The position numbers were made by a program, and so were the translations under genes. Positions 1 through 39,668 of a stretch of 64,000 bases of DNA are shown piece after piece (position 1 is the first letter of the stretch; every line of letters starts with the position of its first letter). The notes under the pieces were generated by a model. It did no database searches, was not told where the DNA came from, and worked only from the letters and a program-made list of their open reading frames with translations. Source of the DNA: Schmidtea polychroa (lineage: Eukaryota); NCBI GenBank assembly GCA_044892525.1, contig CM097885.1, forward strand, positions 2,358,001-2,422,000, in the 5' to 3' direction.

Positions 1-1367
1 GTTCCATCGCTATTCTCTGTAATTCATCTCACTTTGCTAGAATTGTTATCCCTATTTCTAACCCTTCAAATTTACTAATTCGTACGAGTTTTAGGCTATA
101 GATCAATGCTTTCTATTTGACACAAATTTCCTTCACTACATTTCTCATTGTTATTATGAAATTGTGAATGCCATGTGGAAAATTTGACCTTTCATCTAAA
201 ATTTAATGCAGCTAAATGAAATTTGAAATGAACACAGATCAAATAATGAATTTCTGATCATGATGGATTTCTTTCACTTTATCACCTTTTCTCGATAAAA
301 GGATAAATGAATGTCGAGTGATGGATTCCTTTCTAATAACCATCAATAGCGTGAGATAAATCTAATATATTTATCATTAATTTAAATCGATATACTAAAT
401 TGATTATATGATATATTTAATAGTATTTCTATGATTGCAGTATGTCGACATCGATTAGAATATGAAAACATTATTTTAATTCTTTCAATTTTAGTTTAAC
501 TAAGATTAATTTTGTTTTAAATAATAGGAAAATCTTGAATATTTTAAGTTATTATTATTAAGAACAAAAATAAGAATCTCAGCAATCTTAATAAATAAGA
601 TTTTGTGGTCTCAGGTTCTGGGACAGGGAATTTTAAATTTACGTTGTGTTTCATCTATCTTACATAAGGTTTACTGGAAATTTATCACGGAAAGAGTTCA
701 GAATCGAATGAAGTTGTGATTTAATAAGTGCCAATAAAACGCGAAAGAATGCAGGGCATAAGTAGGTCACGTGACCACCATATTTTATGCTTGTAAATTA
801 AAGTAATAATGTTCTTACCCAAAAACTATATGTGGCCCTTAGTTCCTACAAATCTACGCCTCCCTCGTGTAGGTCATTGAAAGGTGAAATGTTTGATACA
901 ATGAATATGGTCACTTGTTTATGCAGAATATGTTGAGCATTTGACACGGATATGATTGGTTGCAGTTACGGTGGTGTGAGGGGGTGGTGGTGAGATGGTG
1001 GCGAGAGCTATTAATTAGATCACAGTTAGTTCCATATAATTATATTTTCACTGATAATTCGCCGTTTGCCTTGTTCGGGTGCCCGATAAAGATTTTCGTT
1101 TTCAGAAGTCGAGTACGCCATCTATCGAGTGAACTCGCAGAACAAAATATACTCATCCAAAACCTACAAAACAACAAAGCAAGACCGGCAAATTACATTC
1201 ATCGAGAGTATTTCATACCCTTTGGAAGATGATCTCAAATTTCAGTTCTTCTACAAGACATTAATGGGAGGCACAAAGGTTAGTTTATTGATATTTATAT
1301 GCGTTTGGACCAGTTGTGATAGGTAACATGTGAGGATTTATTGATATTTGTTTCCTATCCTTGGGCA

Positions 1368-4580: not shown

Positions 4581-6405
4581 TAGTCCCATACCTCACTATA
4601 TGGCCGCTCTTTATACGGCTTTTCGCTTTTACGCCATTCTTTAAATATGGAACTTTTTCGATATACGCCCCTGATATTTTATTACCGGTCACTGCCCGTT
4701 AATAAGTCGCTGTAATACCAGCTCACGCGCGGTCTCATATGTATTTTACTGTTTTAATCTGTAATGACATGTACTCTTAAAAGTAGACGTGTTTATTCTT
4801 GTTTGTGTTTTTGCAATTTATAATTTCTATAAACACACGTTTTCGTGGAATTCAGAGACTGATAAAAAGAGAAGCCGAAAAGTTGTCGTGCTGGAAACTA
4901 AACTTGCAGTTTTATATCGCATTCAAGCTGGTGAGAAAATTGTGCAAATTTGTAAGTCACTTGGACTGGGGAAATCTACTGTTCAAACTATTCGTGATAA
5001 CAAAGAAAAATTTAAAGCACATTCGCAATCTACTGTGCCTTTAAGTGTTTCAGATTTACCTCGGTAAAGAAGTAGCATTATGGAAAAATGAAAAAATTAT
5101 TGGTTATATGGATTGATGACAATAGCCCAAGGAGAATGCCAATGAGCCAAATGACTATCCTAGAAAAGGCTAAAAATATTTTTACGAATTTGAAGAGTGG
5201 TGCTACCAATGAATCGATGGAAGATGTAACATTCCAAGCAAACCGAACAAACAACTTAAAAATGAAAAGTGAAGCAGCCAGTACCAATGATGACGTAGCT
5301 AAAGGATATCCCAATATCTTGACAAGAATTATTGAAAAAGGTGGATATCAACCTGAACAAGTTTTCAATGTGGTTGAGAGGACTCTATTGGAAGCGAATG
5401 CACGTATATTTTTAATATATCTTTCCGAAAATTCAAGGTGCTTTAAAAAGACTAGATAAGAAAAAACTGCCCATTGTTTGGAGATCCAACTACAAAGCTT
5501 GAATGATTAAAAATCTCTTCAAAGAATGGTTCAAAAATTGTCAATAACTTTAGCAACAAGGCCTTTGTTATTTGGGATAATGCTCTAGGACATCAGATTA
5601 ATTCATCTGAATTATCTGAAGATTTAGTATCTTCCCAAAAACAATACAGCTCTGATCCAGTCAATGGATCAGGGTGCAGTAGCCACATTCAAGGCATATT
5701 ATCTACGCAAAACATATCGAAAACTTGTGAAAGAAATCTATGGTGAATTTCCGATTAAACAATTTTGGAAAAACTTCAACATGCTGTTTACAACATTAGC
5801 GAATCGTGGAAGAAATGCATAAAAACTAATGATCCTGGTTTTGAAGATTTGGTGATGTACTCGATTTACTAGATGCTGATAGAGAACCTCTTTCACACGA
5901 GGAACTGATTCAATTAGAAGCAGATAAATCAATTGATGAAAAGCCAGAACATGTTGTATTCAAACAGCTAACATTAAAGAACTTGTCGAATGCGCTTTCT
6001 TATTTCGAACAAGAAATAAACATCTTTCAAAATGATCCCGGCGTAGAGCAATTAACTAAACCATTAGTTGTTATAAAGAACTGAAAATTAGAAGCAGAAA
6101 CCAATACAAGACAATCAACATTGGACAATTTTTTTAACCGGGTAAATTGACAACAGTGGAAAGTGATGATGAAATACAATAGTTTGTTAGCTTCAGTTCA
6201 TTATAATACATATGTTATACATATTATGTATTTTTATTTTATCTGTAAGCAATGTTTGTATGAAATACATATAAAGAAATAAATTAATATAAAATTAAAA
6301 ACTACGTTATGTATTTTATCAAAAATTGGAACCGATCCTATTATTATTCGTTATACGGCTTTTCGCTTTGTGGCCAACTTTCACGGAACACATGAGTGTA
6401 TAGCT
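4581..6405 (+). mobile_element. pogo/Tigger-family DNA transposon, decayed transposase
   Basis: ORF 4789-5067 has a CENP-B N-terminal HTH (RKVVVLETKLAVL...LGLGKSTVQTIRDNKEK). ORF 5088-5459 has a Tc5 HTH and 'GGYQPEQVFNV'. Downstream broken frames give the DDE_1 motifs 'DNALGH' and 'NTALIQSMDQGAVATFKAYYLRK'. The subterminal 19-mer ttatacggcttttcgcttt occurs at 4611 and 6351. Exact ends are approximate. Confidence 0.9.
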
Positions 6406-13599: not shown

Positions 13600-15421
13600 T
13601 CATTTGCTGGTCTTGGTAACAACCAGATATATCGATATCGCCACGATCAGGAACATCACTATGGCAACAATCGCCAGGATCAATCGGTTCTGAACGATTC
13701 TGCACTCGATTATTCATTCACCAGATTATTATTATTCACCGCATGACATTTGCTTACTTTCTGGTCATCCTTGACAGCATTCGTGAGCTGGTTGCCAGGT
13801 CCTCGTTGGTCTCCCTCAGCTGAATGATGGCAGCCGTTATTCGATATGCCCGTGAATGATTGGTTGATTGGCTGCCCCCTGCTGGATGTGATTGGCTGCC
13901 CCTGCTGGATATGATTGGCTGCCCCCCCTGCTGCAGGATGCGATTGGCTGCCCCCCCCCCTGCTGCTGGATGTGATTGGCTGCCCCCTGCTGGATGTGAT
14001 TGGCTGCCCCCTGCTGGATGTGATTGGCTGCCCCCTGCTGGATGTGATTGGCTGCCCCCCCTGCTGCAGGATGCGATTGGCTGCCCCCCCTGCTGCAGGA
14101 TGCGATTGGCTGCCCCCCCTGCTGGATGTGATTGGCTGCCCCCCCTGCTGGATGCGATTGGCTGCCCCCCCTGCTGGATGTGATTGGCTGCCCCCTGCTG
14201 GATATGATTGGCTGCCCCCCCCCTGCTGCAGGATGCGATTGGCTGCCCCCCCCTGCTGGATGTGATTGGCTGCCCCCCCTGCTGGCTGTGATTGGCTGCC
14301 CCCTGCTGGATGTGATTGGCTGCCCCCCCCTGCAGGATGCGATTGGCTGCCCCCCCTGCAGGATGCGATTGGCTGCCCCCCCTGCTGGATGTGATTGGCT
14401 GCCCCCTGCTGGATATGATTGGCTGCTCCCCCCACTGCTGGATATGATTGGCTGCCCCCCCTGCTGGATGTGATTGGCTGCCCCCCCCTGCTGGATGTGA
14501 TTGGCTGCCCCCCCTGCTGGCTGTGATTGGCTGCCCCCTGCTGGATGTGATTGGCTGCCCCCCCTGCAGGATGCGATTGGCTGCCCCCTGCAGGATGCGA
14601 TTGGCTGCCCCCCTGCTGCAGGATGCGATTGGCTGCCCCCCCCTGCTGGATATGATTGGCTGCCCCCTGCTGGATATGATTGGCTGTTCCCCCCACTGCT
14701 GGATGCGATTGGCTGACCCGCCTCACAACAGCAATATGATGACAGCCCCCAACCCAGCGCCTCCCAAATGCAATTGACCCCCTCAATAAGCAAGAATTAC
14801 CCGATCTCTGCTCCTTGTTAATTTCTCCCTCTGCTCACCGAGATCCTCAAGAATCTGCGTTCCGATATGCTCTGTCTCGATTGTCATGCGATATCCATCA
14901 TCTAATTTCTGACCGGCTCGCTCTAGCCTCTCAGTATTCTTGATCAGCCGCAATTTGGGATCATTCTCGCCTCCAAAAAGTTCCTCTCGAGCATCATTGG
15001 CATCTCCATAGCCATTTGCTGATTTCAATCTCACATTCCTCTAGAAAAGTATTTCAAGAATAATTTCTCTACCAATTTTCATTTGTTAACTCACAAATTC
15101 TTTTTCAAGATTTTCCAACTCTTTTGTGTGACTTTGCAAACGATTTTTATATTTAGGTCGTAAATTTATGTCGAAAGAATTAATTTCCAATTCCATTTGC
15201 TGCAACAAATCTTTTGCATCAACAAATAAATTTTCAATTTTTTTAACATGCTTTGTCGAATCTTCTGATTTATCTGACATTAATTAAATTAATTATTTCA
15301 ACATCATACTGGATAAATCACCCCTGAGATAAGTTACTAACTGACCAAGAGAAAATGTTATTTCACTTGTAATATTCCCATATTGCTTTTCATGATTTTC
15401 AAATAAAGAATTCATTGTCAT
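13600..15421 (-). CDS. VTI1A: Vesicle transport v-SNARE VTI1A-like (Qb-SNARE), 5 exons
   Basis: Exons are 15421-15310 (MTMNSLFENHEKQYGNITSEITFSLG...), ~15264/15273-15095 (...DAKDLLQQMELEI...YKNRLQSHTKELENLEKEF), 15040-14801 (...NTERLERAGQKLDDGYRMTIETEHIGTQILEDLGEQREKLTRSRDR), 13819-13758 (LRETNEDLATSSRMLSRMTRK) and 13699-13600 (IVQNRLILAIVAIVMFLIVAISIYLVVTKTSK*). All introns are GT-AG with compatible phases. The protein has Habc, SNARE and C-terminal TM regions as in VTI1A. The exact intron-1 boundaries are ambiguous. Confidence 0.93.
13858..14716. repeat. GC-rich ~21-27-bp minisatellite (gattggctgcccc(c)ntgctggatgt) in VTI1A intron 3
   Basis: Roughly 35-40 units, each containing gattggctg, with variable C-run length. 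Confidence 0.97.

Positions 15422-16618: not shown

Positions 16619-16711
<93 letters not shown>
16594..16711. repeat. (ATT)n microsatellite, left flank of the 3.9-kb LTR-like unit
   Basis: Direct inspection. Confidence 0.95.
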
Positions 16712-16712
<1 letters not shown>

Positions 16713-17039
16713 GTTGGGCTGAGTCGGAAAATCAATTTGGGAAACTAAGAAAGTAAAATAAGCAAGAGATTAAAAGAAAACAAAATAAAATAAACAAATT
16801 TAGGAATACAATAAAATAAGATATAAAAACAATAATTAGAAAATAAGAAATAAAACAAAAAATATAAAACTAAGAAAAATTAAAATAGGACAATAGAATG
16901 ACGAAAAATAACGTAAAATGTAGCAAATAATAAGGAAATCAAAGAAATTAAATAAAAACATAATAAAAATAAAGAAAATAGGAAGAAATAACTCAAAAAC
17001 AAGGAAAATAAATTAAAATAATAAAATTAAGCGGTACTC

Positions 17040-17085
17040 AATGCTGATTGGTCCTCGTAAATAGAAAATTAATATATAAGCAGAC
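17040..17085 (+). promoter_or_regulatory. Putative LTR promoter (reverse CCAAT box plus TATA box)
   Basis: ctgattgg at ~17044-17051 followed by aatatataag at 17071-17080, at the end of an A-rich tract. Confidence 0.5.
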
Positions 17086-19267
17086 ATTAAAATCATAATA
17101 ATTACCGTTAATCCAACAATTGCAATAGGTAAGTGTATTTTAACTACCGTTAATTACCGTTAATCCAACAATTGCAATAGAAACAACAACTCACAGCTAA
17201 CAGCCACCGACTTACAGTAGCTTACAAGGACTATTTCAGAAAATCAAGAAACTTCAACTAAATCTATACTCTACTCAAGCATCAACCGATTCGACCCAGT
17301 GTTTTCGACTCAGCCTATATTGAATACTTGGTAAGGAGTTTTTCGTTTTATATTTAGGTCTATTAAGCAATAATTATGTATATATGCATTAATTATAATT
17401 TTTATTTTTAAAATTTTGTTCTCTTTTCGTTTGATTTAAATGCGTTACGTAATTGAATGATTTAGTGATTTAACAATAAATGATTTATTATGCATCAGTA
17501 ATCTTATTATTTGTGATTTTATGCTATTCAAATTTTTCGAGAAACGTGGCGTTGAGATACTCCATGTCATGGTGTGAGGTGCCTTCGGGAGCTCAGCCGG
17601 TGGACATGGGGTTTTTCAATCACGCAGCTGATTCGGGCCGTAATGTGGGGGCTTCCTCGCGGGTCCGTCGCTGAAGGTGCGACTAAATTCGATAGAAAAT
17701 CATGCGAGAAGAATAGTGTGGAAGAATGAGTACATGAATTGGAGAAAATTTTTGTATATTCGCGTAGTGATTGAGGGTGTCGCACTATCGTCTCATAACA
17801 TCGTTTTACTCCGTTCAAATTTTCTCTATCGCCAGAAGATTCAAGTCCTTCGTCAAAAACTGTTCAAACGTTAGCAATTTTATGTGTGACCTATTATCGG
17901 GGTTCCGGATTTTACTCAAAGTTTAGTCTTACGGTTTCCAGCCAACGAACTTTCGTGATTACTCATTTCATCATCCATGAGTTTCTCTTAAAGCTGTAGT
18001 TATATAGAATTACGAAAATAAATAGTCTCAAACAATTTTTTAATTATAAATACAAATAAATCAAATCAGGAAAAATGTAATTTTTAGAAAATAATTTATC
18101 GTGATGATGCTTACAGATTAAATATGAACCCTCGGTCTACCGATGAATTGCAATCCGGAGTTGAATTAAGCAATAAATTTTCAAATCGATAGGAATAGAT
18201 AGCATATGTTGATGATGACCGAGGGCCACGAGTTGAATTGAGAAATGGTAGTTGAGTGGTTTTGGAGAAACCGTCCACGAAGTAGAAAAATTTCCATAAC
18301 AGTGATGCATATAATTTTAATTTTCCAAAATTTCCCTGAGAATTCGCATGTCAATAGTGTGAGAAGAAGGATTTGGGGTGTGTTCACAGCTGATCAATTA
18401 GCATTACATGCTACGGAGAAACTACATCTGCATGCATACTCAAACATAAAATATCGCATGAGAACATTTGTCAGAAACCGCGATTGTTAATAAGTAGGTG
18501 AGAGTGAAGCTTCAGGTGATCACACATTTTTAGACTCACGGCAGAGGTTCAATGTAGTATATAGACCCACATGCACTATAAATCGCCGGGAATCAGACAT
18601 AATGTGTCAACTGAATTACCATCAAGCTAATGACAGACACTAGATTCTCACCGTTTGGAAGTAGTAGGCAATAGCCAGATAATTAATTAGGGTTCACTTG
18701 CGTGAAGTTGTGTATTCATTTAATCTGAACAAGTTTGGGTTGTGCATGAATAAATGATTATAATTTAATTAGAAAAATTCTTATTTATCCTGACTAAATT
18801 ATTGCAAACAACTTGTAAATGTCTTGATTATCATCAATAAATGATTGAAGGGGAATTAATAGAGTCCTGCCTATTATAAATAACAAGTTTCTAAGTTATT
18901 GACATAGTTCCATAACAGATCTACACATTATTTGCTTAGGGTAAATCTTTAATTTAATCCAAACTACCTTTCCAGGCGGTTTGATCTTTTCAAGTAAACT
19001 AATTAATTTTTTAATTTCATTAACTTGTAGTTTCCCTTATCGGGGGTTATACCTTATCTTCCTTCAGTAAAGCTCTGTATGAATGATCATATGAATGATG
19101 ACCCAAAGTATACAAGATCTGTAGTATAGGGGATTTCTCTAGGCTAATAAACCCGGTTTGTCTGTAAACTACCTATGGTCAGTAAAGTATGATTGTGACC
19201 GGATGAGACGTTCCAATTTGACTTAGATTTTTTTTTATTTTTCATCTTCTCTTCCTAGCCTCTCCAG

Positions 19268-20011
19268 ATGTTACCCAATCCCAAAACCATTCTCAAGCCT
19301 TGTTTTTCTTGTGCAGACAAAAATTCGATCATCAGAGACCTACAGGCTCAAATTGGAAAGTACAAAAGGAAGATAGACGAGCTGGAGGGGACATGGTTTA
19401 GTCCCTCCCAGATGAAGGAGACCCAGAAGAAGTTGTATCGAAGTGAGCATTGCCGTGATGCGCTAATTGCCGAGAGCCGGGCACAGAGGAGCCTGATAAA
19501 AGAGCAGTCGGAAGCGCTGCATAAATTATATGTCCAGGCAGCAACCACCAGGAAGATAGCGAAGATCTCAATTAGTGAAGCTAGCAACCTTTTCCCAGCG
19601 CACCACGACACCTCTGTCAGGTCTTCATCTCCTCTCAGGAAGTCTTGCCGTGAGTGCGTGGAGACCGAGCTTTCTCCCAGAAACCCAGACATTGAAGTCA
19701 CCGGGACTAGTAGGGTCCAGGCGAGCTTTGCATCGGCATCGGCCGTGCAAACACCAACAGCTTCGAAACCGAAACGTCGGCAACTGTCGCGAGCCGAACG
19801 CAAACGGAAACAACGGGAGCGGGCATCGGTCAAGCAGTGTACATCGTCAACCATCGCTCCAGTCAGCAGTAACAATAATCCAACCATGGTCGACCTAACA
19901 GCCGGGATCTCCGGGCGAGTCATCTCCGCCGCCGGGGTGACATGGGAAGAAAACGCCGCCGAGTTTTTTGATCTAAGCGAGTTACTCGCCGACTCGGAGT
20001 GGGAGAAATGA
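19268..20011 (+). CDS. 247-aa unknown protein inside the LTR-like element (coiled coil, Arg/Lys-rich segment, acidic-hydrophobic tail)
   Basis: Uninterrupted ORF, clearly more GC-rich than its surroundings. It is directly preceded by a polypyrimidine tract and cag acceptor (ttttttttatttttcatcttctcttcctagcctctccag|ATG) and followed by AATAAA about 140 bp downstream. Confidence 0.7.
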   Translation: MLPNPKTILKPCFSCADKNSIIRDLQAQIGKYKRKIDELEGTWFSPSQMKETQKKLYRSEHCRDALIAESRAQRSLIKEQSEALHKLYVQAATTRKIAKISISEASNLFPAHHDTSVRSSSPLRKSCRECVETELSPRNPDIEVTGTSRVQASFASASAVQTPTASKPKRRQLSRAERKRKQRERASVKQCTSSTIAPVSSNNNPTMVDLTAGISGRVISAAGVTWEENAAEFFDLSELLADSEWEK

Positions 20012-20574
20012 GGATCTCCCCTAAAATTGGCCTCATTCTCTAGAGAGACCAGAACACTTGCCGAAATCATTTTTTTTTATCTTTATGTTTTTCTTGTTCT
20101 TGTAAATATTGATGTATAAGCTCTCGATGTATTTGCATGAAAATGCCAAAAATAAACCATTTTCACTTATATATGCGTTTCGTTTTGTCGTAAAATAGTG
20201 AATACGAGATAGATGAACCGCATTGGGAGTCTCACGAAACGAGGAGCATTAGTCAGTTAGAAACTCCAGTTAGGGGCATCGCGACGGGCGACAGAGTGAG
20301 AAGACGTAAGTCCTTCTATCGGCAGTCGGGGTTAGGAAGTCGAGACCTCAGTAAGGAGTAGTCCGAAGGAGCTGGCTCACCTGCTTACTGGCGTCTCGCC
20401 GGCATAGCACAGTTCCAACGTGAAGCAACTCACGGGTGCTATGCTGGAGTGTAGGTTATGTACGGGTCCTGCTCAACGATGACAAAAATAAAGACGAGCG
20501 AAATCGATGTGGGCATTTCATCCTCTAGATTAAACGCGGAACAAAGGGGGGTCATCTGAGTAGTTACCCGCCAA

Positions 20575-20576
<2 letters not shown>

Positions 20577-20634
<58 letters not shown>

Positions 20635-26181: not shown

Positions 26182-26269
26182 AGTAGTAGGATGTGAGCTC
26201 CCCAGACCATGTCCCCTCCAGATCACATATACCCCCTCCCCCCCCCCGGGAAAAAATTTTTTTTTTTTT

Positions 26270-27639
26270 TTAGAACGATGCCTAATATTTTTAGAACTAT
26301 TACGTAATCAATGCCTAATATTTTTAGAACGATGCCTAATATTTTTAGAACTATTACGTAATTTTTTTTAAATTAAGTGATCCAGCGGGGACCTACTTTT
26401 TTTCTTCCCAAAAGTAATGTTCCCGCCAACAAATTTTATTAACCGATACCTCATCTTCAAGCTCAGTCCAAGACCTTTCGAATGAGCTATAGGTATCTTA
26501 TATATCTTTAATAGTTTTAATGTTATTAACAATTGATGACCACCATCTTTTCAACGTTAAATTATTATTATTTTTCAAAATATTATTAAGTGATCCAGCG
26601 GGGACCTACTTTTTTTCATCCCAAAAATTATTGTTCCCGCCAACATATTATATTGATCGATAGCTTATTTTAAAGCTCTGTGCAAGAACTTTCTAATGAG
26701 ATATAGATTTTTATCATACGATGACTCATCACATTTTTAGAACAAAGACAATGACTCATCACATTTTTAGAATGATGCCTAATATTTTAGAATGATGCCA
26801 AATATTTTTAGAACGATGTCTATTATTTTTAGAATGATTACATCATACTTTTAGAACGATGCCTAATATTTTTAGAATGATTACGTCATAATTTTAGAAC
26901 GATGCCAAATATTTTTAGAACGATGCCTAATATTTTTAGAACTATTACGTAATCAATGCCTAATATTTTTAGAACGATGCCTAATATTTTTAGAACTATT
27001 ACGTAATTTTTTTTAAATTAAGTGATCCAGCGGGGACCTACTTTTTTTCATCCCAAAAATTATTGTTCCCGCCAACATATTATATTGATCGATAGCTTAT
27101 TTTAAAGCTCTGTGCAAGAACTTTCTAATGAGATATAGATTTTTATCATACGATGACTCATCACATTTTTAGAACAAAGACAATGACTCATCACATTTTT
27201 AGAATGATGTCTAATATTTTAGAATGATGCCAAATATTTTTAGAACGATGTCTATTATTTTTAGAATGATTACATCATACTTTTAGAATGATGCCTAATA
27301 TTTTTAGAATGATGCCTAATATTTTTAGAATGATTACGTCATAATTTTAGAACGATGCCAAATATTTTTAGAACGATGCCTAATATTTTTAGAATGATTA
27401 CGTCATACTTTTAGAACGATGCCTAATATTTTAGAATGATGACTATTATTTTTAGAACGATTACGTCATACTTTTAGAACGAAGCCTAATATTTTTAGAA
27501 TTAATAATTTTGTTTTAATTATCGATGATTATATAATTTTGTTTAAATCATTGATTATATAATTCTTTTGTTTTAATTATCGAATACGTAATAATATAAT
27601 TTTGTTTAAATCGTTGATTACATATTATTATTTTCTAAG

Positions 27640-27705
<66 letters not shown>

Positions 27706-27877
27706 CATATATACACCGAGTCTATCCGACAAAATATTCTGTCCCCCTATGGGTACTGCTCACAAGGGTACTGATCACCAGGGTACTGCTCACAATCAAC
27801 AACTCGCTAGGGTATTATTAGTATTATTAATAATGACTAAGATATTTTCAAAGAATTATTATTACAACTCCCAAGAA

Positions 27878-27976
<99 letters not shown>

Positions 27977-28460
27977 CATGTATTTTTAGAACGATGACTC
28001 ATTCGATGACTCATACGATGACTCATAAATTATTATTATTTGTCAAAATATTATTAATTGGCCCAGCGGGCTCCTGGTTTTCGTTTGCTCAAAACTTAAT
28101 GTTCCCACCAACAGATTTTATTGACCGATACCTCATCTTAAAGCTCAGTCCAAGACCTTTCGAATGAGCCATAGAAGGTATCATCATCATTATTATTAAC
28201 AAAGAGAATGACTCACCCAACGATGTCTAATACTTTTAGAACGATGTCTAATATTTTTAGAATGATTACGTCATAATTTTAGAACGATGTCTATTATTTT
28301 TAGAATGATGCCTAATATTTTTAGAATGATTACGTCATACTTTTAGAACGATGCCTAATATTTTTAGAACGATGCCAAATATTTTTTAGAACGATGCCTA
28401 ATATTTTTAGAATGATTACGTCATACTTTTAGAACGAAGCCTAATATTTTTAGAATTAAT
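26270..28460. repeat. Subterminal arrays of ~21-bp units (ttagaacgatgcctaatattt) and ~200-bp units (aagtgatccagcggggacctac...cccgccaaca...aaagctcagtccaagacctttcgaatgag) in the left arm; mirrored at 38740-39575
   Basis: The ~200-bp unit starts at ~26374, 26588 and 27020, with a diverged copy at ~28058. Reverse-complement copies lie at 39135-39470. Confidence 0.9.
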
Positions 28461-28594
28461 AATTTTGTTTTAATTATCGATGATTATATAATTTTGTTTA
28501 AATCATTGATTATATAATTCTTTTGTTTTAATTATCGAATACGTAATAATATAATTTTGTTTAAATCGTTGATTACATATTATTATTTTCTAAG

Positions 28595-28640
<46 letters not shown>

Positions 28641-28854
28641 TTTTTCTCCGAGTTTATCCGACACGATATTCTGTCCCCCTAAGGGTAATGGTCACAAAGG
28701 TACTGCTAAAACTTTAACATATTATTACACACAATGTATAAAAAATATTATTACTGTCCACACATGCTACAAGTTAGTATTCCCATCGATAGCTCATCTT
28801 AAAGTCTAGTGTAAGATCTATCTAATGATATATTATTATTATAATTGGTAAAGA

Positions 28855-28981
<127 letters not shown>

Positions 28982-29306
28982 GGTAAAGATATTAACACCT
29001 GCGCGAAAGATGTTATTATTATTATGATTATTATTATATATAGTCAGAGTTTATCTGACAAGATATTCTGTCCCCACACACATTCTATATACACATACCT
29101 TATTATTTCAAAGTAATACGCGCGGGAGTTATTATTATTATCAAAAAACCTAAAATATTTTCTACACACACACACACACAACCCATTAACCATTATTATT
29201 ATTGCAAATATTAGTCAAAAACATAAAAACACTCATAAACCATTATTATTATCAATATTCGTGAAAACCTCAAATATTTTTTACACACATATACAACCCA
29301 TTAAAC

Positions 29307-29351
<45 letters not shown>

Positions 29352-32300
29352 ATAATTAGTCAAAAACCTAAAATAATTTTTACACACTAAGTTATGGGGT
29401 AGAGAATTATTATATGTTTGCAATATTCTGTGTTTGCCTTCACGGGAAGTTGACAATAATTTTATACATACATTCCATATACACATACCTTGTTTAACAT
29501 GGGTGTATATAGTCAGAGTTTATCCGACAAAATATTCTGTCCCCCTATGGGTATTGCTCACAAAGGTACTACTCACACTCAACATGTCGCAAGGGTTTTC
29601 GAGTTTAAAGCATATTATGGTTTATTAAGGTTAGTAAATAAAACTTATAACACCTACTATTTTTAATAATATTTAAACGATAAAAATCAAGACAAGAGAG
29701 GACAAGGCAAAGTTTATGCATTTAGTATTGCCAGGCCTAATGAGCAGTGACCAAATATCTGTGCCTGAAAGACACGGTGGATATTTGTTCGCGTCCACAA
29801 GGGTCGTCTGTGCCTTCCCCAAGTGGGGTCAGAAGAACCTGGGCATTATAGCTTTCCGTATGGAACATTACGCCTAGCATGGGTAGTCAACTACCAGCAC
29901 ATTCGAAACGTATAATTTCAAAATACATGCGTCATTGGCACTATAACCAAATTAATTAATGTTTTCACTAACACAAATATATATTTACAGAGGCCTCCCA
30001 CTAGTTGGATTACAACCGCCCACCACGACGATCAGCTTGTAAATATATATTAATTAAGGGATAAAGAGGACCCACCCAACCCTATTATATTTAATTTACA
30101 AATTTTTCTCGCTCTTCTGTTGGTAATCTATCTCAAAATTATCATCTCCATCGGGCCATTTGGAATACATCTTGCAAATTGGACATATTTCTTAGTTTCT
30201 GATGTGGTGTCAACTATCATTGCTAAAATTTATATTGATTTAAAAGCAATTAACTTACATTATCTAGCATTTTATCGTCACAGGCTTGATAAATTAGGCA
30301 ACTGTTATTTGTGGTATACTTTTTCAATGACATTTCCCACCATAAAACACAGATACCTAAATATAATATATATATTTTAAAGAATTAATTCATGTCTTAC
30401 ATTAATAATAATATTCTTCAGGTAGTACTTTACAATATCTAATTGCTAAAACATCGGTTTTTCCCATTTTTCTTGACAATCGTTGAAAGTTTACATAATT
30501 TAAGTCTGATAATTCATGTTGAAGGACACCCACAATCAGCTAATTCATTTAAGAAATCCGGAACTATAACTCCTTTAGTGTTTCACCATTTTGTCTGGTT
30601 CATTTTTTTCTATAATTCATGTTTTAATAAGAAATTTCAAAATCCAGAACATAAGTCATTTAGTGTTTCACCATTTTGTCTAGTTCATCTTCTTCATAAT
30701 CATATAATTCATTTTCTTCATTACTAAGTAAAATAATTAAAATATTGTAGTAAATTCTTTATTTACTTACTTTATGGATACTAAAACGAAAGAAATAAAG
30801 TTATATCAAAAGTATATTTAAATAAATTAAATTTAAATAATTTAATTTAGTTATTTAAAAATATTTAAACAATTTAGTTATTTAAGCATATTTAAACATT
30901 AATATTATTATATAGTATAATTTTATATAATATTATAATTTTATGTACACTTATATATCCTTCATTTAATTTTTTAAATTCAAAATTTATAATGAAGATT
31001 CTTTGAATTAAAAAATATTCTGTTAGTATTTCCAGGCAGTAAACAACGAATTCAATAATTAAAATCTTAATTTTCATGTTGTTAGAGTTGTGGCCAGAAT
31101 TTAATCGCCATCTAATCGTTTGTTCTCAATTTCGCTCATTTTTGTTCAAAACATTCAGGTGAGTTGTTATCTGGAAAGTTTCTTTTAACTCAGCTTTGTT
31201 AAAACACTCACGGTATTTTTGAGGGACGTGACACTGGAAATAAATTAACAATGGGTGGTCATCCATACATGTTGTTGGTCTGAGCTGTCGATTTATTTGG
31301 AAATAGATATATTAAAAACATTTACGGTATCATTCAGTAAAATAATATAGTATTTTTGAGTATTTTTTAGGTTATTTATAAATAACAGTATTTTGATATA
31401 TCAATAAAGACCATATACTCCGAGTTTATCCGGCAAGATATTCTGTCTCCCTATGGGTATTGCTAGCAAGGGTACTGGTCACATTCAACATGTCGCGAGG
31501 GTATATTAATTAAGGCATATGTATATTAGTTAAAAGTTCTTAGGTAATTTAGTGAGATATGCATAATCATTAATAACAACATATATTCATTGATAATTTT
31601 GGTAGAAGGTCTTTATCATTTAGAGTAAATTTCAGTCTTTGTTCGAGTCAAAAGGAGTCATAATAGAAACATGATCATTTGGTTATCATTTAACCAATTA
31701 AGGTGCTTATTAGTTAGAAATATAGGGTTACAATTCTTAGGTAATTTAGTGAGATGATCAGAAATTCGTGAATATTTTAAGTGTAACTTTATACTTATGT
31801 CGAGCGACTAATTTATTGGTTAACATTTTAGACATTTAAAGCAAAAGGTAATTTATTCATCTAATGTTCGTTACAATAGTTAATAATATGAGAAAAACAT
31901 GGTCATTATTCATTGATAATTTTAAATTCTTTATCATTTGGAGTAAATTTGTTTGAGGCAAAAATAATTAAAGGAGTCATAATAGAAATATGGTTATCAT
32001 TTATCCAATTAAGGGGCCTATTATTTAGAAATATATATTATAAAGTAACAATTATTTTCTAATTTAATTAGATGATCATTAGACGTAATATATCTTTGCG
32101 AGAAATTTAAGATGTTTGAGTAACCAAAACATGGACATTTTGTGCGATAAATTTATGAATATTGCTTAATTTTGTTATTTTTAGTCATTTAAAATAATAT
32201 TTAGCAAAGGTAATTTAGCAAAATATCATTTATCCACCCGATAACAATATTCCTTCAATAGATTAACTGATATTCAACCTATTTAATTTCTGGAAATATA

Positions 32301-33005
32301 ATTAAAATCATAAATTTCCTTCATGAAAGTTAAATTTTCTTTAGTTGTCGATGTCTAGCTCTTTTAAGTCAATGTCCGTCTTTAAAATGTTAAATAAAAT
32401 AATTTAAAGCAATAACCTTTGATATCAATTATCTCTAAATATTTCAAATATTGCATTGTCAAAACCAAGTAAATTAGTCATTACCCATTAATAAAACCGT
32501 GGATAATTAATAAAAACTGGTTCTGAAACATAAATTACTGTGCAATAACATTCATCACAACCTCTAAAACGATATAATTTCACAGGAACTATTCATAGCT
32601 GACTATTTCCCTTGAAAATTTGATATTTTACCAATAAGAATATATAAATATTCAAAACATTAACCGATCCCTCACCAAATATCTTTACCCCTTAAAACAC
32701 CTTAAATCGTATATATTACCATCTTAACCTTCACTAAATCCAACCGAATATAATTTCACCCACTTGTGCCCTTTAATAAATCTTAAAATCTATAGAAAAT
32801 TCTTCAAAATATGAATTTTATTTAATTGTCATAGACATTCTTCCATTGAAATAATTTAGTAGCTAAATTCAAAGAGTCCACTAAAAGATCAAAATTCATT
32901 AAAATAAATATTTAACCACATGTGTCATCAAATACCTAACTAGAGATGATAATATCTCATTGATTGATCATAATTATAACCATTATAACATGATATATCT
33001 TTCAA

Positions 33006-35009
33006 ACTAAATCACAAATTTAGGTATATTTTACAATAATTTTCAAGTAGATTTTAAATATATCATCACCGTGAAAAAATTAGATTGTTTCAACTTTAGA
33101 TTTTCAATATTTTAAAGTTCATCAATGTGTAAATATTCTTAGAAAAATATATGAAAAAATTATTTAGTCAAATTATCATTACAAAGTCATCATCATCATC
33201 AAAATTAATAAAATATAGCAAATTATCAAGAAATTAATTAAATTTATCTTAGAATTAACACTAAACCTTAAACTTTTAAATATTCTTTCAATTAACATGA
33301 AATTCACAAAAAAATGTTAGTAAAATCCCGCTAACTCTAAAAAATTACCAATGAATTTAATGCCAAATAATAACCAAATATTTGCCTAAATAAAATCATT
33401 AAAACACACCAGTACCTTTACGACCAGTACCCTTACGACCAATACCCTTACAAGCAGTACCCATAGAGGGAGAAAATATTTTGTCGGATAAACTCCGAGT
33501 ATATATATAATAAAACGAATTAACAATAACTCCATCAAATTGAATCAGTCAAATTATCACAAATTTTAATAAAAAATCTTATTCTAAAGTGGTAAGCAGC
33601 GTAAAATCGAAAGATAATTTTAATAACACAGAGATAAAATTAACAATATTATTCTCAGGTGGTAAGAATATTTTATTTTTGAGTCTGTTATCCCTCTATT
33701 ATCATTGCTTACTTGATGTTTTCATAAATTTAAGTAAAGTTAATGCTGGGTTTGTGTTATGACACACTTTGTTTCCTTCTTAACTTTGAGAGATTATTTT
33801 GATTAAAAAGAGTAATGTATCTTAATTTATCTTTTAGAATAACTGTTTTTGAAATATTTAATGTAAAATAGCAAATATCATAATTATTAATTCAATATTA
33901 AAGGAGTTAATCAAAATTTAAAATATAAAGTTATCATAATTGCTTAGTCAAATACCATTTGTTATGTATGTTTGTCATTTTTGGATTAAATACTTTATCA
34001 AAATAAATGTTTATCACATTATTAAAATATTTTAATTCGTTAGTCACTCATATATTAGAAATAATTTATAAATACTCATCACTTATAGCCCCCCATTTTC
34101 CACTAATCCTCCCAACAACTATTTCTTTGAACATTGAATTAAATATTTTTTTTTTATTAAAGTGATCATTTTTATAAATTTTTATGAATTTCATGAAATA
34201 ATTTTAAATAAATGCAATTAATATATTTCCATCTTATCTATGACACTTCTCGGTATATTTACATTTACGTTCCATTAATGAATAATTCAAACCCTTATTT
34301 TCACCTTTTTGAATTTCATTATTAATTAATCATAGAATAATGATGATTCTTACCACCTGAGAATAATATTGTTAATTTTATCTCTGTGTTATTAAAATTA
34401 TCTTTCGATTTTACGCTGCTTACCACTTTAGAATAAGATTTTTTATTAAAATTTGTGATAATTTGACTGATTCAATTTGATGGAGTTATTGTTAATTCGT
34501 TTTATTATATATATACTCGGAGTTTATCCGACAAAATATTTTCTCCCTCTATGGGTACTGCTTGTAAGGGTATTGGTCGTAAGGGTACTGGTCGTAAAGG
34601 TACTGGTGTGTTTTAATGATTTTATTTAGGCAAATATTTGGTTATTATTTGGCATTAAATTCATTGGTAATTTTTTAGAGTTAGCGGGATTTTACTAACA
34701 TTTTTTTGTGAATTTCATGTTAATTGAAAGAATATTTAAAAATTTAAGGTTTAGTGTTAATTCTAAGATAAATTTAATTAATTTCTTGATAATTTGCTAT
34801 ATTTTATTAATTTTGATGATGATGATGACTTTGTAATGATAATTTGACTAAATAATTTTTTCATATATTTTTCTAAGAATATTTACACATTGATGAACTT
34901 TAAAATATTGAAAATCTAAAGTTGAAACAATCTAATTTTTTCACGGTGATGATATATTTAAAATCTACTTGAAAATTATTGTAAAATATACCTAAATTTG
35001 TGATTTAGT
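33006..35009. repeat. Inner inverted repeat (arms ~33006-33669 and ~34346-35009, ~675-bp spacer)
   Basis: actaaatcacaaatttaggtatatt...ctcaggtggtaagaat is the reverse complement of attcttaccacctgag...aatatacctaaatttgtgatttagt. Confidence 0.93.
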
Positions 35010-35459
35010 ATAAAATATTCACTTAAAATATTCACGAATTTCTGATCATCTCACTAAATTACCTAAGAATTGTAACCCTATATTTCTAACTAATAAGCAC
35101 CTTAATTGGTTAAATGATAACCAAATGATCATGTTTCTATTATGACTCCTTTTGACTCGAACAAAGACTGAAATTTACTCTAAATGATAAAGACCTTCTA
35201 CCAAAATTATCAATGAATATATGTTGTTATTAATGATTATGCATATCTCACTAAATTACCTAAGAACTTTTAACTAATATACATATGCCTTAATTAATAT
35301 ACCCTCGCGACATGTTGAATGTGACCAGTACCCTTGCTAGCAATACCCATAGGGAGACAGAATATCTTGCCGGATAAACTCGGAGTATATGGTCTTTATT
35401 GATATATCAAAATACTGTTATTTATAAATAACCTAAAAAATACTCAAAAATACTATATT

Positions 35460-37110
35460 ATTTTACTGAATGATACCGTAAATGTTTTTAATATATCTAT
35501 TTCCAAATAAATCGACAGCTCAGACCAACAACATGTATGGATGACCACCCATTGTTAATTTATTTCCAGTGTCACGTCCCTCAAAAATACCGTGAGTGTT
35601 TTAACAAAGCTGAGTTAAAAGAAACTTTCCAGATAACAACTCACCTGAATGTTTTGAACAAAAATGAGCGAAATTGAGAACAAACGATTAGATGGCGATT
35701 AAATTCTGGCCACAACTCTAACAACATGAAAATTAAGATTTTAATTATTGAATTCGTTGTTTACTGCCTGGAAATACTAACAGAATATTTTTTAATTCAA
35801 AGAATCTTCATTATAAATTTTGAATTTAAAAAATTAAATGAAGGATATATAAGTGTACATAAAATTATAATATTATATAAAATTATACTATATAATAATG
35901 TTAATGTTTAAATATGCTTAAATAACTAAATTGTTTAAATATTTTTAAATAACTAAATTAAATTATTTAAATTTAATTTATTTAAATATACTTTTGATAT
36001 AACTTTATTTCTTTCGTTTTAGTATCCATAAAGTAAGTAAATAAAGAATTTACTACAATATTTTAATTATTTTACTTAGTAATGAAGAAAATGAATTATA
36101 TGATTATGAAGAAGATGAACTAGACAAAATGGTGAAACACTAAATGACTTATGTTCTGGATTTTGAAATTTCTTATTAAAACATGAATTATAGAAAAAAA
36201 TGAACCAGACAAAATGGTGAAACACTAAAGGAGTTATAGTTCCGGATTTCTTAAATGAATTAGCTGATTGTGGGTGTCCTTCAACATGAATTATCAGACT
36301 TAAATTATGTAAACTTTCAACGATTGTCAAGAAAAATGGGAAAAACCGATGTTTTAGCAATTAGATATTGTAAAGTACTACCTGAAGAATATTATTATTA
36401 ATGTAAGACATGAATTAATTCTTTAAAATATATATATTATATTTAGGTATCTGTGTTTTATGGTGGGAAATGTCATTGAAAAAGTATACCACAAATAACA
36501 GTTGCCTAATTTATCAAGCCTGTGACGATAAAATGCTAGATAATGTAAGTTAATTGCTTTTAAATCAATATAAATTTTAGCAATGATAGTTGACACCACA
36601 TCAGAAACTAAGAAATATGTCCAATTTGCAAGATGTATTCCAAATGGCCCGATGGAGATGATAATTTTGAGATAGATTACCAACAGAAGAGCGAGAAAAA
36701 TTTGTAAATTAAATATAATAGGGTTGGGTGGGTCCTCTTTATCCCTTAATTAATATATATTTACAAGCTGATCGTCGTGGTGGGCGGTTGTAATCCAACT
36801 AGTGGGAGGCCTCTGTAAATATATATTTGTGTTAGTGAAAACATTAATTAATTTGGTTATAGTGCCAATGACGCATGTATTTTGAAATTATACGTTTCGA
36901 ATGTGCTGGTAGTTGACTACCCATGCTAGGCGTAATGTTCCATACGGAAAGCTATAATGCCCAGGTTCTTCTGACCCCACTTGGGGAAGGCACAGACGAC
37001 CCTTGTGGACGCGAACAAATATCCACCGTGTCTTTCAGGCACAGATATTTGGTCACTGCTCATTAGGCCTGGCAATACTAAATGCATAAACTTTGCCTTG
37101 TCCTCTCTTG
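35460..37110 (+). pseudogene. Intron-rich gene-like cassette in the Polinton right arm (mirror copy on - strand at ~29690-31340)
   Basis: A series of short GT-AG intron-like segments: 35592-35632 gtgagt..tttccag, 36033-36079 gtaagt..acttag, 36403-36446 gtaaga..atttag, 36545-36580 gtaagt..ttttag and 36815-36862 gtaaat..ttatag. They separate more GC-rich exon-like blocks. No clean frame could be assembled and the product is unidentified. Confidence 0.5.
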
Positions 37111-37436
37111 TCTTGATTTTTATCGTTTAAATAGTGTGTGTGATAAGTTTTATTTACTAACCCTAATTAATATACCCTTGCGACATGTTGAATGTGAGTA
37201 GTACCTTTGTGAGCAATACCCTTAGGGGGACAGAATATTTTGTCGGATAAACTAGGAGTATATACACCCATGTTAAACAAGGTATGTGTATATAGAATGT
37301 ATGTATAAAATTATCGCTCCATATTGACAACTTCCTGTAAAGGCAAACACAGAATACTGCAAACATAATAATACTCTACCCCATAACTTAGTGTGTAAAA
37401 ATTATTTAAGGTTTTTTCACTAATAATAATAATAAT

Positions 37437-37469
<33 letters not shown>

Positions 37470-37586
37470 GTTTAATGGATTGTATATGTGTGTAAAAAAT
37501 ATTTGAGGTTTTCACGAATATTGTTACAAATAATTGTTAATGGGTTGTGTGTGTGTGTGTAAAAATATTTTAGGTTTTTAATATTG

Positions 37587-37648
<62 letters not shown>

Positions 37649-38049
37649 GTTTAATGGGTTGTATATGCGTGTAAAAAATATTTGAGGTTTTCACGAATAT
37701 TGATAATAATAATGGGTTATGAGTGTTTTTATGTTTTTGACTAATATTTGCAATAATAATAATGGTTAATGGGTTGTGTGTGTGTGTGTAGAAAATATTT
37801 TAGGTTTTCACTAATAATGATAATAATAATGGTTAATGGTTGTGTGAGTGTAAATAATATTTTAGGTTTTTGACTAATATTTGCAATAATAATAATAATA
37901 ATAATAAGTTTAATGAGTTGTATGTGTGTGTGTAAAAATATTTTAGGTTTTTAATATTGATAATAATAATAATGGTTAATGGGTTGTGTGTGTGTGTAAA
38001 AAATATTTTAGGTTTTCACTAATAATGATAATAATAATGGTTAATGGGT

Positions 38050-38081
<32 letters not shown>

Positions 38082-38166
38082 AAATATTTTAGGTTTTTAA
38101 TACTGATAATAATAATAATGGTTGAGGGGTTGTGTGTGTAAACCATATTTTAGATTTTTCATTAAC

Positions 38167-38211
<45 letters not shown>

Positions 38212-38513
38212 TCCCGCGCGTGTTAATACTTTAAAAGAAAATATTGAAAATTTAAAAAAATAATAATATTTATGCAAAGTATGTGCAATAATTATGTCTT
38301 TGTTAATTAAGTAAACTTTAGTGTCAAAATAAGTTTTTAAAATATTTTTAAATTTAAAATACCGCAACTTAATATATTTTTGTTCTACCCCTTCATTGAT
38401 TTAAGTTGGTCAGAATTTAATAATAATTATATTATACCCTTTGAGACTTGTTGAGTGTGAGTAGTACCCTTGCTAGCAATACCCATAGGGAGACAGAATA
38501 TCTTGTCGGATAG

Positions 38514-38600
<87 letters not shown>

Positions 38601-39668
38601 CTTAGAAAATAATAATATGTAATCAACGATTTAAACAAAATTATATTATTACGTATTCTATAATTAAAACAGAAGAATTATATAATCAATGATTTAAACA
38701 AATTATATAATCATCGATAATTAAAACAAAATTATTAATTCTAAAAATATTAGGCATCGTTCTAAAAGTATGATGTAATCATTCTAAAAATATTAGGCAT
38801 CGTTCTAAAAGTATGACGTAATCGCTCTAAAAATATTAGGCATCGTTCTAAAAATATTTGGCATCGTTCTAAAAATATTAGACATCGATTACGTAATAGT
38901 TCTAAAAATATTAGGCATCATTCTAAAAATAATAGACATCGTTCTAAAATTATGACGTAATCATTCTAAAAATATTAGGCATCATTCTAAAATATTAGAC
39001 ATCATTCTAAAAATAATAGACATCGTTCTAAAAATATTTGGCATCATTCTAAAATATTAGACATCATTCTAAAAATGTGATGAGTCATTGTCTTTGTTCT
39101 AAAAATGTGATGAGTCATCGTATGATAAAAATCTATAGCTCATTAGAAAGTTCTTGGACTGAGCTTTAAAATAAGCTATCGATCAATATAATATGTTGGC
39201 GGGAACAATAATTTTTTGGGATGAAAAAAAAGTAGGTCCCCGCTGGATCACTTAATAATATTTTGAAAAATAATAATAATTTAACGTTGAAAAGATGGTG
39301 GTCATCAATTGTTAATAACATTAAAACTATTAAAGATATATAAGATACCTATAGCTCATTCGAAAGGTCTTGGACTGAGCTTGAAGATGAGGTATCGGTT
39401 AATAAAATTTGTTGGCGGGAACATTACTTTTGGGAAGAAAAAAAGTAGGTCCCCGCTGGATCACTTAATTTAAAAAAAATTACGTAATAGTTCTAAAAAT
39501 ATTAGGCATCGTTCTAAAAATATTAGGCATTGATTACGTAATAGTTCTAAAAATATTAGGCATCGTTCTAAAAAAAAAAAAAAATTTTTTCCCGGGGGGG
39601 GGGGGGAGGGGGTATATGTGATCTGGAGGGGACATGGTCTGGGGAGCTCACATCCTACTACTCCTAAG

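Follow-up and report, generated by a model that had tools for sequence, protein, structure and literature searches.

A 3865-bp unit with TG...CA ends occupies positions 16712..20576 on the forward strand of the window, the 64,000-nucleotide stretch of Schmidtea polychroa DNA analyzed here. The unit starts with TGTTGG at 16712 and ends with CCAACA at 20571-20576. It is flanked by a TTAT target-site duplication (16708..16711 and 20577..20580), which lies inside an (ATT)n microsatellite. Within it are a putative promoter, a short and a long segment bounded by splice signals, an open reading frame (ORF) for a 247-residue protein, and a polyadenylation signal.

A solo LTR of a giant Gypsy element

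The initial annotation read this unit as a solo LTR related to the Burro-type giant Gypsy elements of planarians, and its relatives bear out both proposals. The same sequence also occurs as direct LTR pairs that enclose gag, env-like, and pol regions. The genome contains at least 150 copies of the ORF, and the protein search matches include 24 same-strand pairs with an ORF-to-ORF spacing of 17.8-33.6 kb; the unit is therefore not a single-copy sequence lacking paired relatives. One LTR pair (L009/L003) has a common target duplication, with 14 differences over 3848 sites. Solo copies make up 20 of the 36 fetched loci, and 4-bp target duplications also border others of this class. Because of the target duplication and the paired relatives, the copy in the window was presumably left by LTR-LTR recombination.

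Between paired LTRs, Pfam matches were obtained for gag, CCHC, fusion glycoprotein, protease, RT, RNase H, integrase, ankyrin, RING, and MATH domains. Retrotrans_gag, zf-CCHC, and the fusion glycoprotein (E 1.6e-24) share one frame ahead of pol. The order protease-RT-RNase H-integrase, read in one element whose pol is broken by stops and frameshifts, is that of Ty3/Gypsy. The examined element is 28.5 kb long. BIR, BCL2-like, SUMO-like, and dUTPase-like motifs gave no Pfam match at E 0.01 in 11 pieces of the family; the published calls of such motifs are partly based on HHpred.

A primer-binding site is located 7 nt past the 5' LTR in 8 loci and is complementary to the 3' end of a genomic tRNA-Pro(TGG). 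The first locus picked by its tRNA pattern (L038) contained no tRNA; L039 was a tRNA locus. The expected pairs around gag-pol and their primer site were thus recovered, but a polypurine tract before the 3' LTR was absent from all three loci inspected, where the longest purine run in the final 90 nt is 5 nt and the best stretch within 200 nt has 11 purines in 15. A conserved non-purine motif adjoins the 3' LTR in its place. At the sequence level, the unit is confirmed as the solo LTR of an env-bearing, Burro-like giant Gypsy element.

Conserved signals

The putative U3 (16712..17103, ~390 bp) is A-rich and 91-94% conserved over 16812-17111; its boundary is set by the TATA box and by the repeat described below. 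It contains a CCAAT box in reverse orientation (ATTGG, 17047..17051, minus strand), which is present in 31/32 loci and also in a distant family (L041), and a TATA box (TATATAA, 17073..17079) found in 32/32. The main splice donor, G/GTAAGG, is kept in 31/32. These three signals were scored over the 32 fetched loci that have the LTR start, and the AATAAA polyadenylation signal (20151..20156), which in L041 is absent as AATAAA, was scored over 36 loci and occurs in 35 of them. The putative U5 (20176..20576) contains a conserved block at 20312-20511 and, in 5' LTR copies, is followed by the tRNA-Pro primer site. The U5 blocks fold no better than shuffled sequences (z -0.9 to +0.2).

The CCAAT and TATA boxes, donor, start codon, 247-residue ORF, AATAAA, and basic and acidic protein segments of the initial annotation are all present. 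As judged by this comparison, the LTR ends, CCAAT box, TATA box, donor, and AATAAA are not chance features. Every LTR of the family is shown to carry a predicted promoter, two segments bounded by splice signals, a protein gene kept by purifying selection, and a polyadenylation signal.

The protein gene

The ORF extends on the forward strand from the ATG at 19268 to the TGA at 20011 (19268..20011). Compared with 20 divergent copies (dS 0.49-0.71), its dN/dS is 0.10-0.16, versus 1.0-2.4 in shifted frames, and differences are distributed over the three codon positions as 572/308/1417. The ORF is full length in 28/36 loci and disrupted or extended in the other eight. Disruption at neutral rates, the outcome that could have spoken against a gene, was thus not observed, and the dN/dS values indicate strong purifying selection. 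Indels are rare in the ORF (2 events in 700 nt over 17 copies, versus 42-98 per 100 nt across most of the large intron); however, the promoter and U5 blocks are likewise nearly indel-free, and this scarcity is not specific to the ORF. Changes private to single copies have an omega of ~0.54, nearer to neutrality than the 0.19 of shared changes, which suggests that the constraint stems from replicating lineages. An antisense frame, 240 residues long in the window, was rejected as a shadow of the ORF, since it spans 54-263 residues among copies and is broken in those that diverge most. The 247-residue ORF is almost certainly a real gene of the element.

Residues 15-113 (19310..19606), with long predicted helices, form the family-defining region, in which distant homologs share 24-31 of 76 residues over positions 38-113. 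The AlphaFold model, which is poor (pLDDT 53.5), places long helices at residues 15-41 and 46-93. The Arg/Lys-rich motif (residues 166-186, 19763..19825) is the most constrained segment (pN/pS 0.01) and is retained in distant homologs. The acidic-aromatic tail (residues 226-247, 19943..20008) is conserved in near and distant homologs. The homolog in the L041 LTR has the same layout and 96/247 identical residues (39%), while the LTR DNA is otherwise unalignable.

The homolog alignment comprised the 11 profile matches except P0007, a repetitive protein without the shared motif. One of 11 homologs matched Pfam REV under the cut-off (E 0.0013, 19.1 bits versus 22), a match that may be compositional. 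Pfam returned two weak, sub-cut-off coiled-coil-type matches for the window protein and no family match for three relatives. A homolog search at 135-433 residues yielded none among 699 candidates, the best ESM Atlas match scored 0.83 with low recognition, and a viral fold search gave no match at E<=0.001. Sequence, profile, and fold searches found no homology to Rev, Rex, or CERV. Zinc binding through Cys pairs was rejected, as these pairs are missing from distant homologs. A role of the LTR protein as a nuclear regulator, as proposed in the initial annotation, is plausible.

The putative large intron and its acceptor

The putative large intron (17331..19258, 1928 nt) runs from GTAAGG to a pyrimidine tract and TAG, and contains 46 ATGs. 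Two acceptors had been considered, and the AG directly before the ATG at 19268 fared less well: it is lost in 4/36 loci (L027, L034, L035, and L036), and in many others it reads AAG and not yAG. A yAG located 7-10 nt upstream of the ATG (19256-19258 in the window) was scored in 34/36 loci, and L036 also has a yAG there; in L041, the yAG sits directly at the ATG. The upstream yAG, 9 nt before the ATG in the window, is therefore the more likely acceptor.

A block in this intron (17535..17690) has 93-95% identity and may be a response or packaging element. Its mean folding z was -3.2 over 12 copies, versus two intron controls at +1.1 and +0.8; covariation was small, with only one pair changed on both sides.

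A putative mini-intron and the r1/r2 repeat

A 52-nt segment with the form GTAAGT...AG (17129..17180) lies near the putative cap site. This mini-intron had been overlooked in the initial annotation. It would separate exon 1 (17099..17128, here called r1) from a non-coding exon 2 (17181..17330), and neither leader exon contains an ATG. The last 30 nt of the mini-intron (r2, 17151-17180) are an exact copy of r1, so that its end duplicates the first ~25 nt after TATA+30. Identity between r1 and r2 starts at TATA+23 to +31, and transcription may start at ~17103-17104.

Within an LTR, r1 and r2 generally agree. Over the last 22 nt, r1 equals r2 in 19 of 21 copies examined, yet r1 sequences of different subfamilies differ at a mean of 4.1 of these 22 positions. 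The distant family L041 has another r1 sequence with identical geometry (start at TATA+30, 51-nt spacing, and AG/GT). Within 492,914 nt scanned, a comparable repeat occurred 22 times, always at the mini-intron site. One locus considered as a possible mosaic (L040) lacks the LTR start and was uninformative. The mini-intron is absent as one unit in several copies.

Proposed mechanism

We infer that the r1/r2 pattern is the trace expected if the 5' end of the RNA is spliced and strong-stop transfer then takes place at the cap. Transcription would start at ~17103, which would also be the 5' end of the genomic RNA, and the cap-proximal mini-intron would be spliced from this end. Minus-strand strong-stop DNA would span the ~3.4 kb between the primer site and the cap. 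Its end, composed of exon 1 and exon 2, could pair with r2 and exon 2 at the RNA 3' end; each cycle would then copy r1 anew into r2, and the mini-intron would thereby survive. Every round of replication thus seems to restore the mini-intron. Splicing of both RNA ends would give intron-less progeny. A deletion between the two direct repeats explains the intron-less copies equally well, which counts against the mechanism. The gene would therefore lie in R/U5 and not in U3, and we consider this placement by the re-templating route probable.

The default product of any LTR would be a short spliced mRNA ending at the AATAAA at 20151. Genomic RNA would have to retain the 1.9-kb intron and read past the 5' polyadenylation signal. 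The weakest step of the proposal is that the protein may be a nuclear, oligomerizing regulator that binds the element's own RNA through its Arg motif. It could plausibly act at the structured intronic block and favor unspliced or read-through RNA, by Rev/CERV-like export or Tat-like elongation. We lean slightly toward an RNA-binding regulator of element expression, and we give the whole explanation, with a solo LTR, an R/U5 gene, a re-templated mini-intron, and an RNA regulator, about an even chance. A more far-reaching version is tentative: the ~3-kb R would be the gene, the mini-intron would be rebuilt at each first-strand transfer, a Rev/Tat-like switch would shift output from the short default mRNA of the LTR to genomic RNA of 25-30 kb, and the many solo LTRs would be a distributed source of a trans-regulator controlling how active full-length elements are.

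Alternative interpretations

The same R/U5 gene could encode a transactivator that binds DNA and acts on the LTR promoter, of the foamy virus Tas or bZIP type, with a coiled-coil dimer, a basic segment for nuclear localization or DNA contact, and an acidic activation domain. Acidic-aromatic tails act as activation domains, and the conservation of the tail, the long helices in the low-confidence model, and the conservation of U3, which is the highest among the non-coding blocks, are in accord with such a function. However, the basic motif is located ~70 residues C-terminal of the coiled coil, beyond a variable linker, unlike that of bZIP proteins, and Pfam matched no DNA-binding family. This function is a minority possibility.

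The placement of the gene could also be conventional, with a short R around the TATAAG at ~20115 and the AATAAA at 20151, and with the gene in a 3.4-kb U3 under its own promoter, as for MMTV sag; r1 and r2 would then be homogenized in another way. This TATAA-like motif, which closely precedes AATAAA, is conserved in 30/36 loci. The breakpoints of a recombination scan are scattered (17106-17180, ~17750, ~18700-18880, ~19790, and ~20230) and do not point specifically to the proposed border between U3 and R. Retroviral R regions also have lengths of 15-250 nt, according to the available part of a published account (PMC12789967). However, a short R leaves the exact identity of r2 and r1 from TATA+23..31 to the donor unexplained, in eight r1 types and the unrelated L041 type, and all 32 loci keep the upstream TATA box. 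A TGTA element that could serve 3'-end processing overlaps the downstream motif. We regard a short R as rather unlikely.

A host-directed accessory function, in anti-silencing or in the apoptosis or ubiquitin pathway, would match the RING, TRAF, and ankyrin cargo of the element (Pfam; available text of PMC6431247), and Burro is described as a PIWI target in planarians in part of another report (PMC8532177). However, the 247-residue protein has no captured host domain, and its constraint is strongest on the Arg-rich motif; such a function is improbable. That the ORF is a chance frame, a shadow, or a dead remnant in a long non-coding repeat is largely refuted by a dN/dS of 0.13 at dS up to 0.7, by the 39% identical homologs in another LTR family, and by the inconstancy of the antisense frame, despite the overlap of that frame in many copies and the eight altered loci.

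Comparison with known elements

Burro/GYPSM1 elements of planarians are ~22-37 kb long and carry accessory ORFs, as far as the available text of PMC6431247 describes them. The element studied here resembles them in its size, its multi-kb LTRs, a Gag with CCHC knuckles opening a giant ORF, a fusion-glycoprotein region between gag and pol, the order of protease, RT, RNase H, and integrase, and ankyrin and TRAF/MATH cargo (PMC6431247). In contrast, MATH is found here in a separate downstream ORF, the BIR, BCL2, and SUMO-like motifs have no Pfam match, and a gene, an intron, or an R/U5 layout within the LTR goes unmentioned in the available text (PMC6431247). In the literature we found neither Burro LTRs described as having an ORF or an intron nor an R of kilobase length, although Grohme 2018, Repbase, or supplements may mention one; the accessible portions of PMC11410931, PMC8532177, and PMC12801592 contain nothing on these features. 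Plant Ogre elements are also giant Gypsy elements with LTRs of 1.9-6.5 kb, but their extra ORFs are in the internal region, and a gene inside the LTR is unmentioned in the same available text (PMC6431247).

MMTV sag/rem and HIV-1 nef likewise have protein-coding sequence within the LTR and are expressed from spliced mRNA, as is predicted here. However, they are described, in the sections available, as lying in U3, where the 5' promoter drives their expression from the 3' LTR, and R is 15-250 nt long (PMC12789967), whereas here the predicted promoter, putative introns, ORF, and polyadenylation signal are all within one LTR and the gene would be in R/U5. Foamy viruses have the major splice donor within R, upstream of the polyadenylation signal, and with identical LTRs they must block polyadenylation at the 5' end and rely on the 3' signal, a situation comparable to the one proposed here; their R, however, is 193 nt long and non-coding, and the available text describes no acceptor, ORF, or self-restoring mini-intron (PMC3694450). 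CERV of the C. elegans element Cer1, like HIV Rev, is a nuclear protein that is made from a spliced mRNA, results from default splicing, and is needed for the export of unspliced genomic RNA, according to the accessible part of PMC10309623; the LTR protein may resemble them as a putative nuclear product of a predicted spliced mRNA. CERV differs in being large and multi-domain, no sequence or fold link to the LTR protein was found, and the latter would be a candidate for RNA binding and export.

Implications

According to the available text of PMC12789967, known LTR genes lie in U3 and retroviral R regions are 15-250 nt long. If the LTR does contain a selected gene placed after the start site, with a strong-stop DNA of ~3.4 kb, the basic picture of how LTRs are built would have to be widened. 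An LTR with its own conserved gene and a rebuilt tiny intron would be an unusual retroelement layout, if RNA data confirm it. The r1/r2 repeat would offer a concrete answer to how an element retains an intron even though its own genomic RNA is spliced, and may leave a record of the start site in DNA. The annotation of planarian genomes is affected as well, because at least 150 copies of a gene for a probable nuclear protein reside in LTRs and homologous exons are fused into predicted host gene models.

Identity of the LTR unit and its element

The 3865-bp unit at 16712–20576, which starts with TGTTGG and ends with CCAACA, is a solo LTR. It is flanked by a TTAT/TTAT duplication and surrounded by an (ATT)n array. 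All of the motifs listed in the initial annotation are present at their positions, and the 247-aa ORF spans 19268–20011 (+). The assignment to a giant gypsy-type (Burro-like) element also holds, given the target duplication, the paired relatives around gag-pol and the Burro-like anatomy.

The host genome (781 Mb), which we class as planarian-type on the anatomy of the element, is AT-rich and has four large contigs. A search with the LTR DNA gave 46 matches from 40 of 3263 candidates scored, and ten of them were near full length with 97–100% identity. A search with the LTR protein gave at least 150 matches; 132 of the 150 listed had no internal stop, in a ranking biased toward intact copies. 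Twenty-four same-strand pairs, 17.8–33.6 kb apart, were found among those listed, and the unit is neither single-copy nor lacking paired relatives. The 36 ORF-bearing loci that were fetched were classed as 20 solo LTRs with a 4-bp duplication, eight 5′ LTRs with a primer site, three 3′ LTRs and five unclassified loci. Frames that appear nested were observed in L021 (another pol-like frame running into the LTR) and in L018 and L019 (a non-LTR-like frame in place of the LTR 5′ half), as labeled from reading translations.

One LTR pair was examined as a 28.5-kb element, with a common target duplication and 14 differences in 3848 sites. Its interior contains Pfam matches to gag, CCHC knuckles, protease, RT, RNase H and integrase, to a viral fusion glycoprotein in frame downstream of gag, and to ankyrin, RING and MATH domains, while pol is broken by stops and frameshifts. 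This anatomy agrees with the part of the Burro description available to us (PMC6431247). Judged by that description, the element has most of the Burro marks tested and appears to work like Burro.

The paired copies expected around gag-pol were thus found, as was the primer-binding site, located 7 nt 3′ of the LTR and complementary to the 3′ end of a genomic tRNA-Pro(TGG). The expected polypurine tract was not found directly 5′ of the 3′ LTR in L003, L008 and L030; a conserved non-purine motif adjoins the LTR there. The primer tRNA forms a tandem array with 475-bp spacing from G000:C1:130901010 onward (L039), and its pattern has 1580 matches genome-wide. The first bases of the LTR (16716–16725) show near-complementarity to a portion of the primer-binding site, through which the two genomic RNA ends could pair.

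Six internal accessory ORFs (L007:5684, L033:2551, L033:4132, L033:5358, L003:602 and L033:2109) have an AG 2–3 nt 5′ of the ATG, four of them as TAGA[C/T]ATG. These sites, chosen by eye with no background frequency for comparison, suggest that, as in complex retroviruses, a single LTR leader may serve many splice acceptors.

Signals and selection in the LTR

The TATA box (32/32 loci), CCAAT (31/32), main donor (31/32) and AATAAA (35/36) are conserved. An acceptor had been placed directly before ATG 19268; however, the AG there is lost in four loci, and the more likely acceptor is a conserved yAG about 9 nt upstream (19256–19258), abutting a pyrimidine tract. The predicted leader contains no ATG, versus 46 in the putative large intron (17331–19258). 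Within this intron, a 155-nt block (17535–17690) is 93–95% conserved, with a folding z of −3.2 compared with about +1 in two controls and little covariation.

The ORF is full length (247–253 aa) in 28 of the 36 loci. Neutral decay was not borne out: relative to the window copy, dN/dS is 0.10–0.16 in 20 divergent copies (dS 0.49–0.71) and 0.06–0.41 in nine close copies. Other frames give 1.0–2.4, except for the antisense frame with common third positions (0.18). Across 17 copies, the ORF has two indel events in 700 nt, whereas most of the intron has 42–98 per 100 nt; the promoter and U5 blocks are likewise indel-poor. Constraint is tightest at aa 166–186 (pN/pS 0.01), followed by aa 1–100 (0.07). 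From these sequence comparisons, the ORF is a real gene.

Changes private to single copies (15 synonymous and 22 non-synonymous, plus four that create a stop) give an omega of about 0.54 (p 0.065 versus neutrality), whereas shared states (147 synonymous, 89 non-synonymous) give 0.19 (Fisher p 0.003 versus private changes), in a comparison that omits six copies without a close neighbour. Therefore, selection works through replicating lineages and is not established for solo copies.

A proposed self-restoring mini-intron and the probable position of R

On the 3′ side of the TATA box, each LTR has a repeat ending in AG (r1; 17099–17128 in the window), followed by a GT donor and some 50 nt that end in a copy of r1 (r2, 17151–17180), outlining a putative mini-intron (17129–17180). 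The two repeats are identical across their last 22 nt in 19 of 21 copies examined, with a total identity of 25–33 nt; L016, which carries a partial deletion, and L025, with two mismatches, depart from this. Between subfamilies, r1 itself differs at a mean of 4.1 of 22 positions, with eight types. All 22 such repeats in 492,914 nt scanned lie at the mini-intron site. The mini-intron is present in 23 of 32 loci; in seven, one repeat and the intron are missing (cleanly in five, judging from related copies), and the other two have an incomplete r2 and a replaced leader, respectively. The identity begins at TATA+23 to +31, about where a TATA-driven transcription start is expected.

These features would be explained if splicing removes the mini-intron near the 5′ end of the genomic RNA. 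Strong-stop DNA, extended to the cap, would anneal to r2 and exon 2 of the 3′ end, where the RNA would stay unspliced, so that in each cycle r2 would be re-templated from r1, while r1 and the intron would be copied from the 3′ LTR. Under this model R would begin at about 17103, giving a U3 of about 390 bp and an R+U5 of 3473 bp, and the gene would therefore lie downstream of the transcription start. A short R at TATAAG 20115, a motif present in 30 of 36 loci, is the rival placement, and a recombination scan gave no decision between the two. The evidence for an R/U5 gene with a self-restoring intron is strong but indirect, coming from DNA.

Distant homologs of the LTR protein

A profile search gave 11 hits (E 1e-8 to 5e-4), including nine chimeric gene models and one fragment; these ten have aa 38–113 in common (24–31 identities). 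An Arg-rich motif follows a linker in most hits with an intact C-terminal part, and one homolog matches Pfam REV below the cut-off. The nine chimeras (P0001–P0006, P0009–P0011) join an unrelated host domain to an exon resembling the LTR gene and are probably gene models spliced into intronic solo LTRs. A genome search with two of the homologs revealed more paired families, which are abundant. One fetched copy, L041, is a 4.2-kb 5′ LTR with DNA unalignable with the window LTR past its A-rich start. It keeps CCAAT, TATA, a candidate donor, the yAG-ATG arrangement, a primer site identical to that of the window family and a 253-aa ORF (96/247 identical to the window protein). Its mini-intron geometry is repeated with unrelated sequence, beginning at TATA+30.

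Other features of the window

A large nested inverted-repeat structure (26232–39609) has 2121-nt arms with 100% complementarity (29670–31790/35013–37133), inner arms of 673 nt and outer arms that contain 21-nt minisatellites; it may be a foldback element or a feature of the assembly. A GC-rich 26-nt tandem array (13865–14723, 33 copies) carries a reverse CCAAT motif in every unit. The window also contains a gene for an amiloride-sensitive sodium channel (DEG/ENaC) of 566 aa in a single frame (54395–56095, −; Pfam ASC, E 9e-45), Pfam matches to fragments of a zinc-ribbon/RING protein (59592–60140, +) and a Suf/HAT (CstF77-like) protein (62004–62354, +), and a weak match to a Tc5 transposase DNA-binding domain (5088–5459, +; E 0.019, below cut-off).

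Proposed function of the LTR protein

Known LTR genes such as sag and nef sit in U3, and R is 15–250 nt in the material accessible to us (PMC12789967), whereas the gene here would lie in R/U5. Our literature search, with Grohme 2018, Repbase and supplements outside its scope, gave no report of such a layout. If R holds the donor, acceptor, ORF and polyA signal, any LTR could yield a short spliced mRNA, and genomic RNA would have to retain the large intron and bypass the 5′ polyA signal. As far as the accessible text describes, foamy viruses, with a donor in R, face the same 5′ polyA problem, which they overcome by means of RNA structure and the binding of U1 (PMC3694450). The intron-retention problem is likewise common to Cer1, where the portion consulted attributes its solution to CERV, a product of default splicing (PMC10309623). 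By homology, the LTR protein falls outside the Rev, Rex and CERV families.

The main rival role for it is that of a DNA-binding transactivator. Searches found no family, fold or functionally characterized homolog of the LTR protein that would support either this role or that of a switch in RNA fate. The protein has long helices in its predicted structure; its Arg/Lys motif is tightly conserved and its tail acidic-aromatic, and it would arise from splicing of the same intron that holds the conserved stem. Therefore, provided that the gene is real, the best fit, at slightly better than even chances in our judgment, is that the LTR protein may act as a switch favouring genomic RNA.
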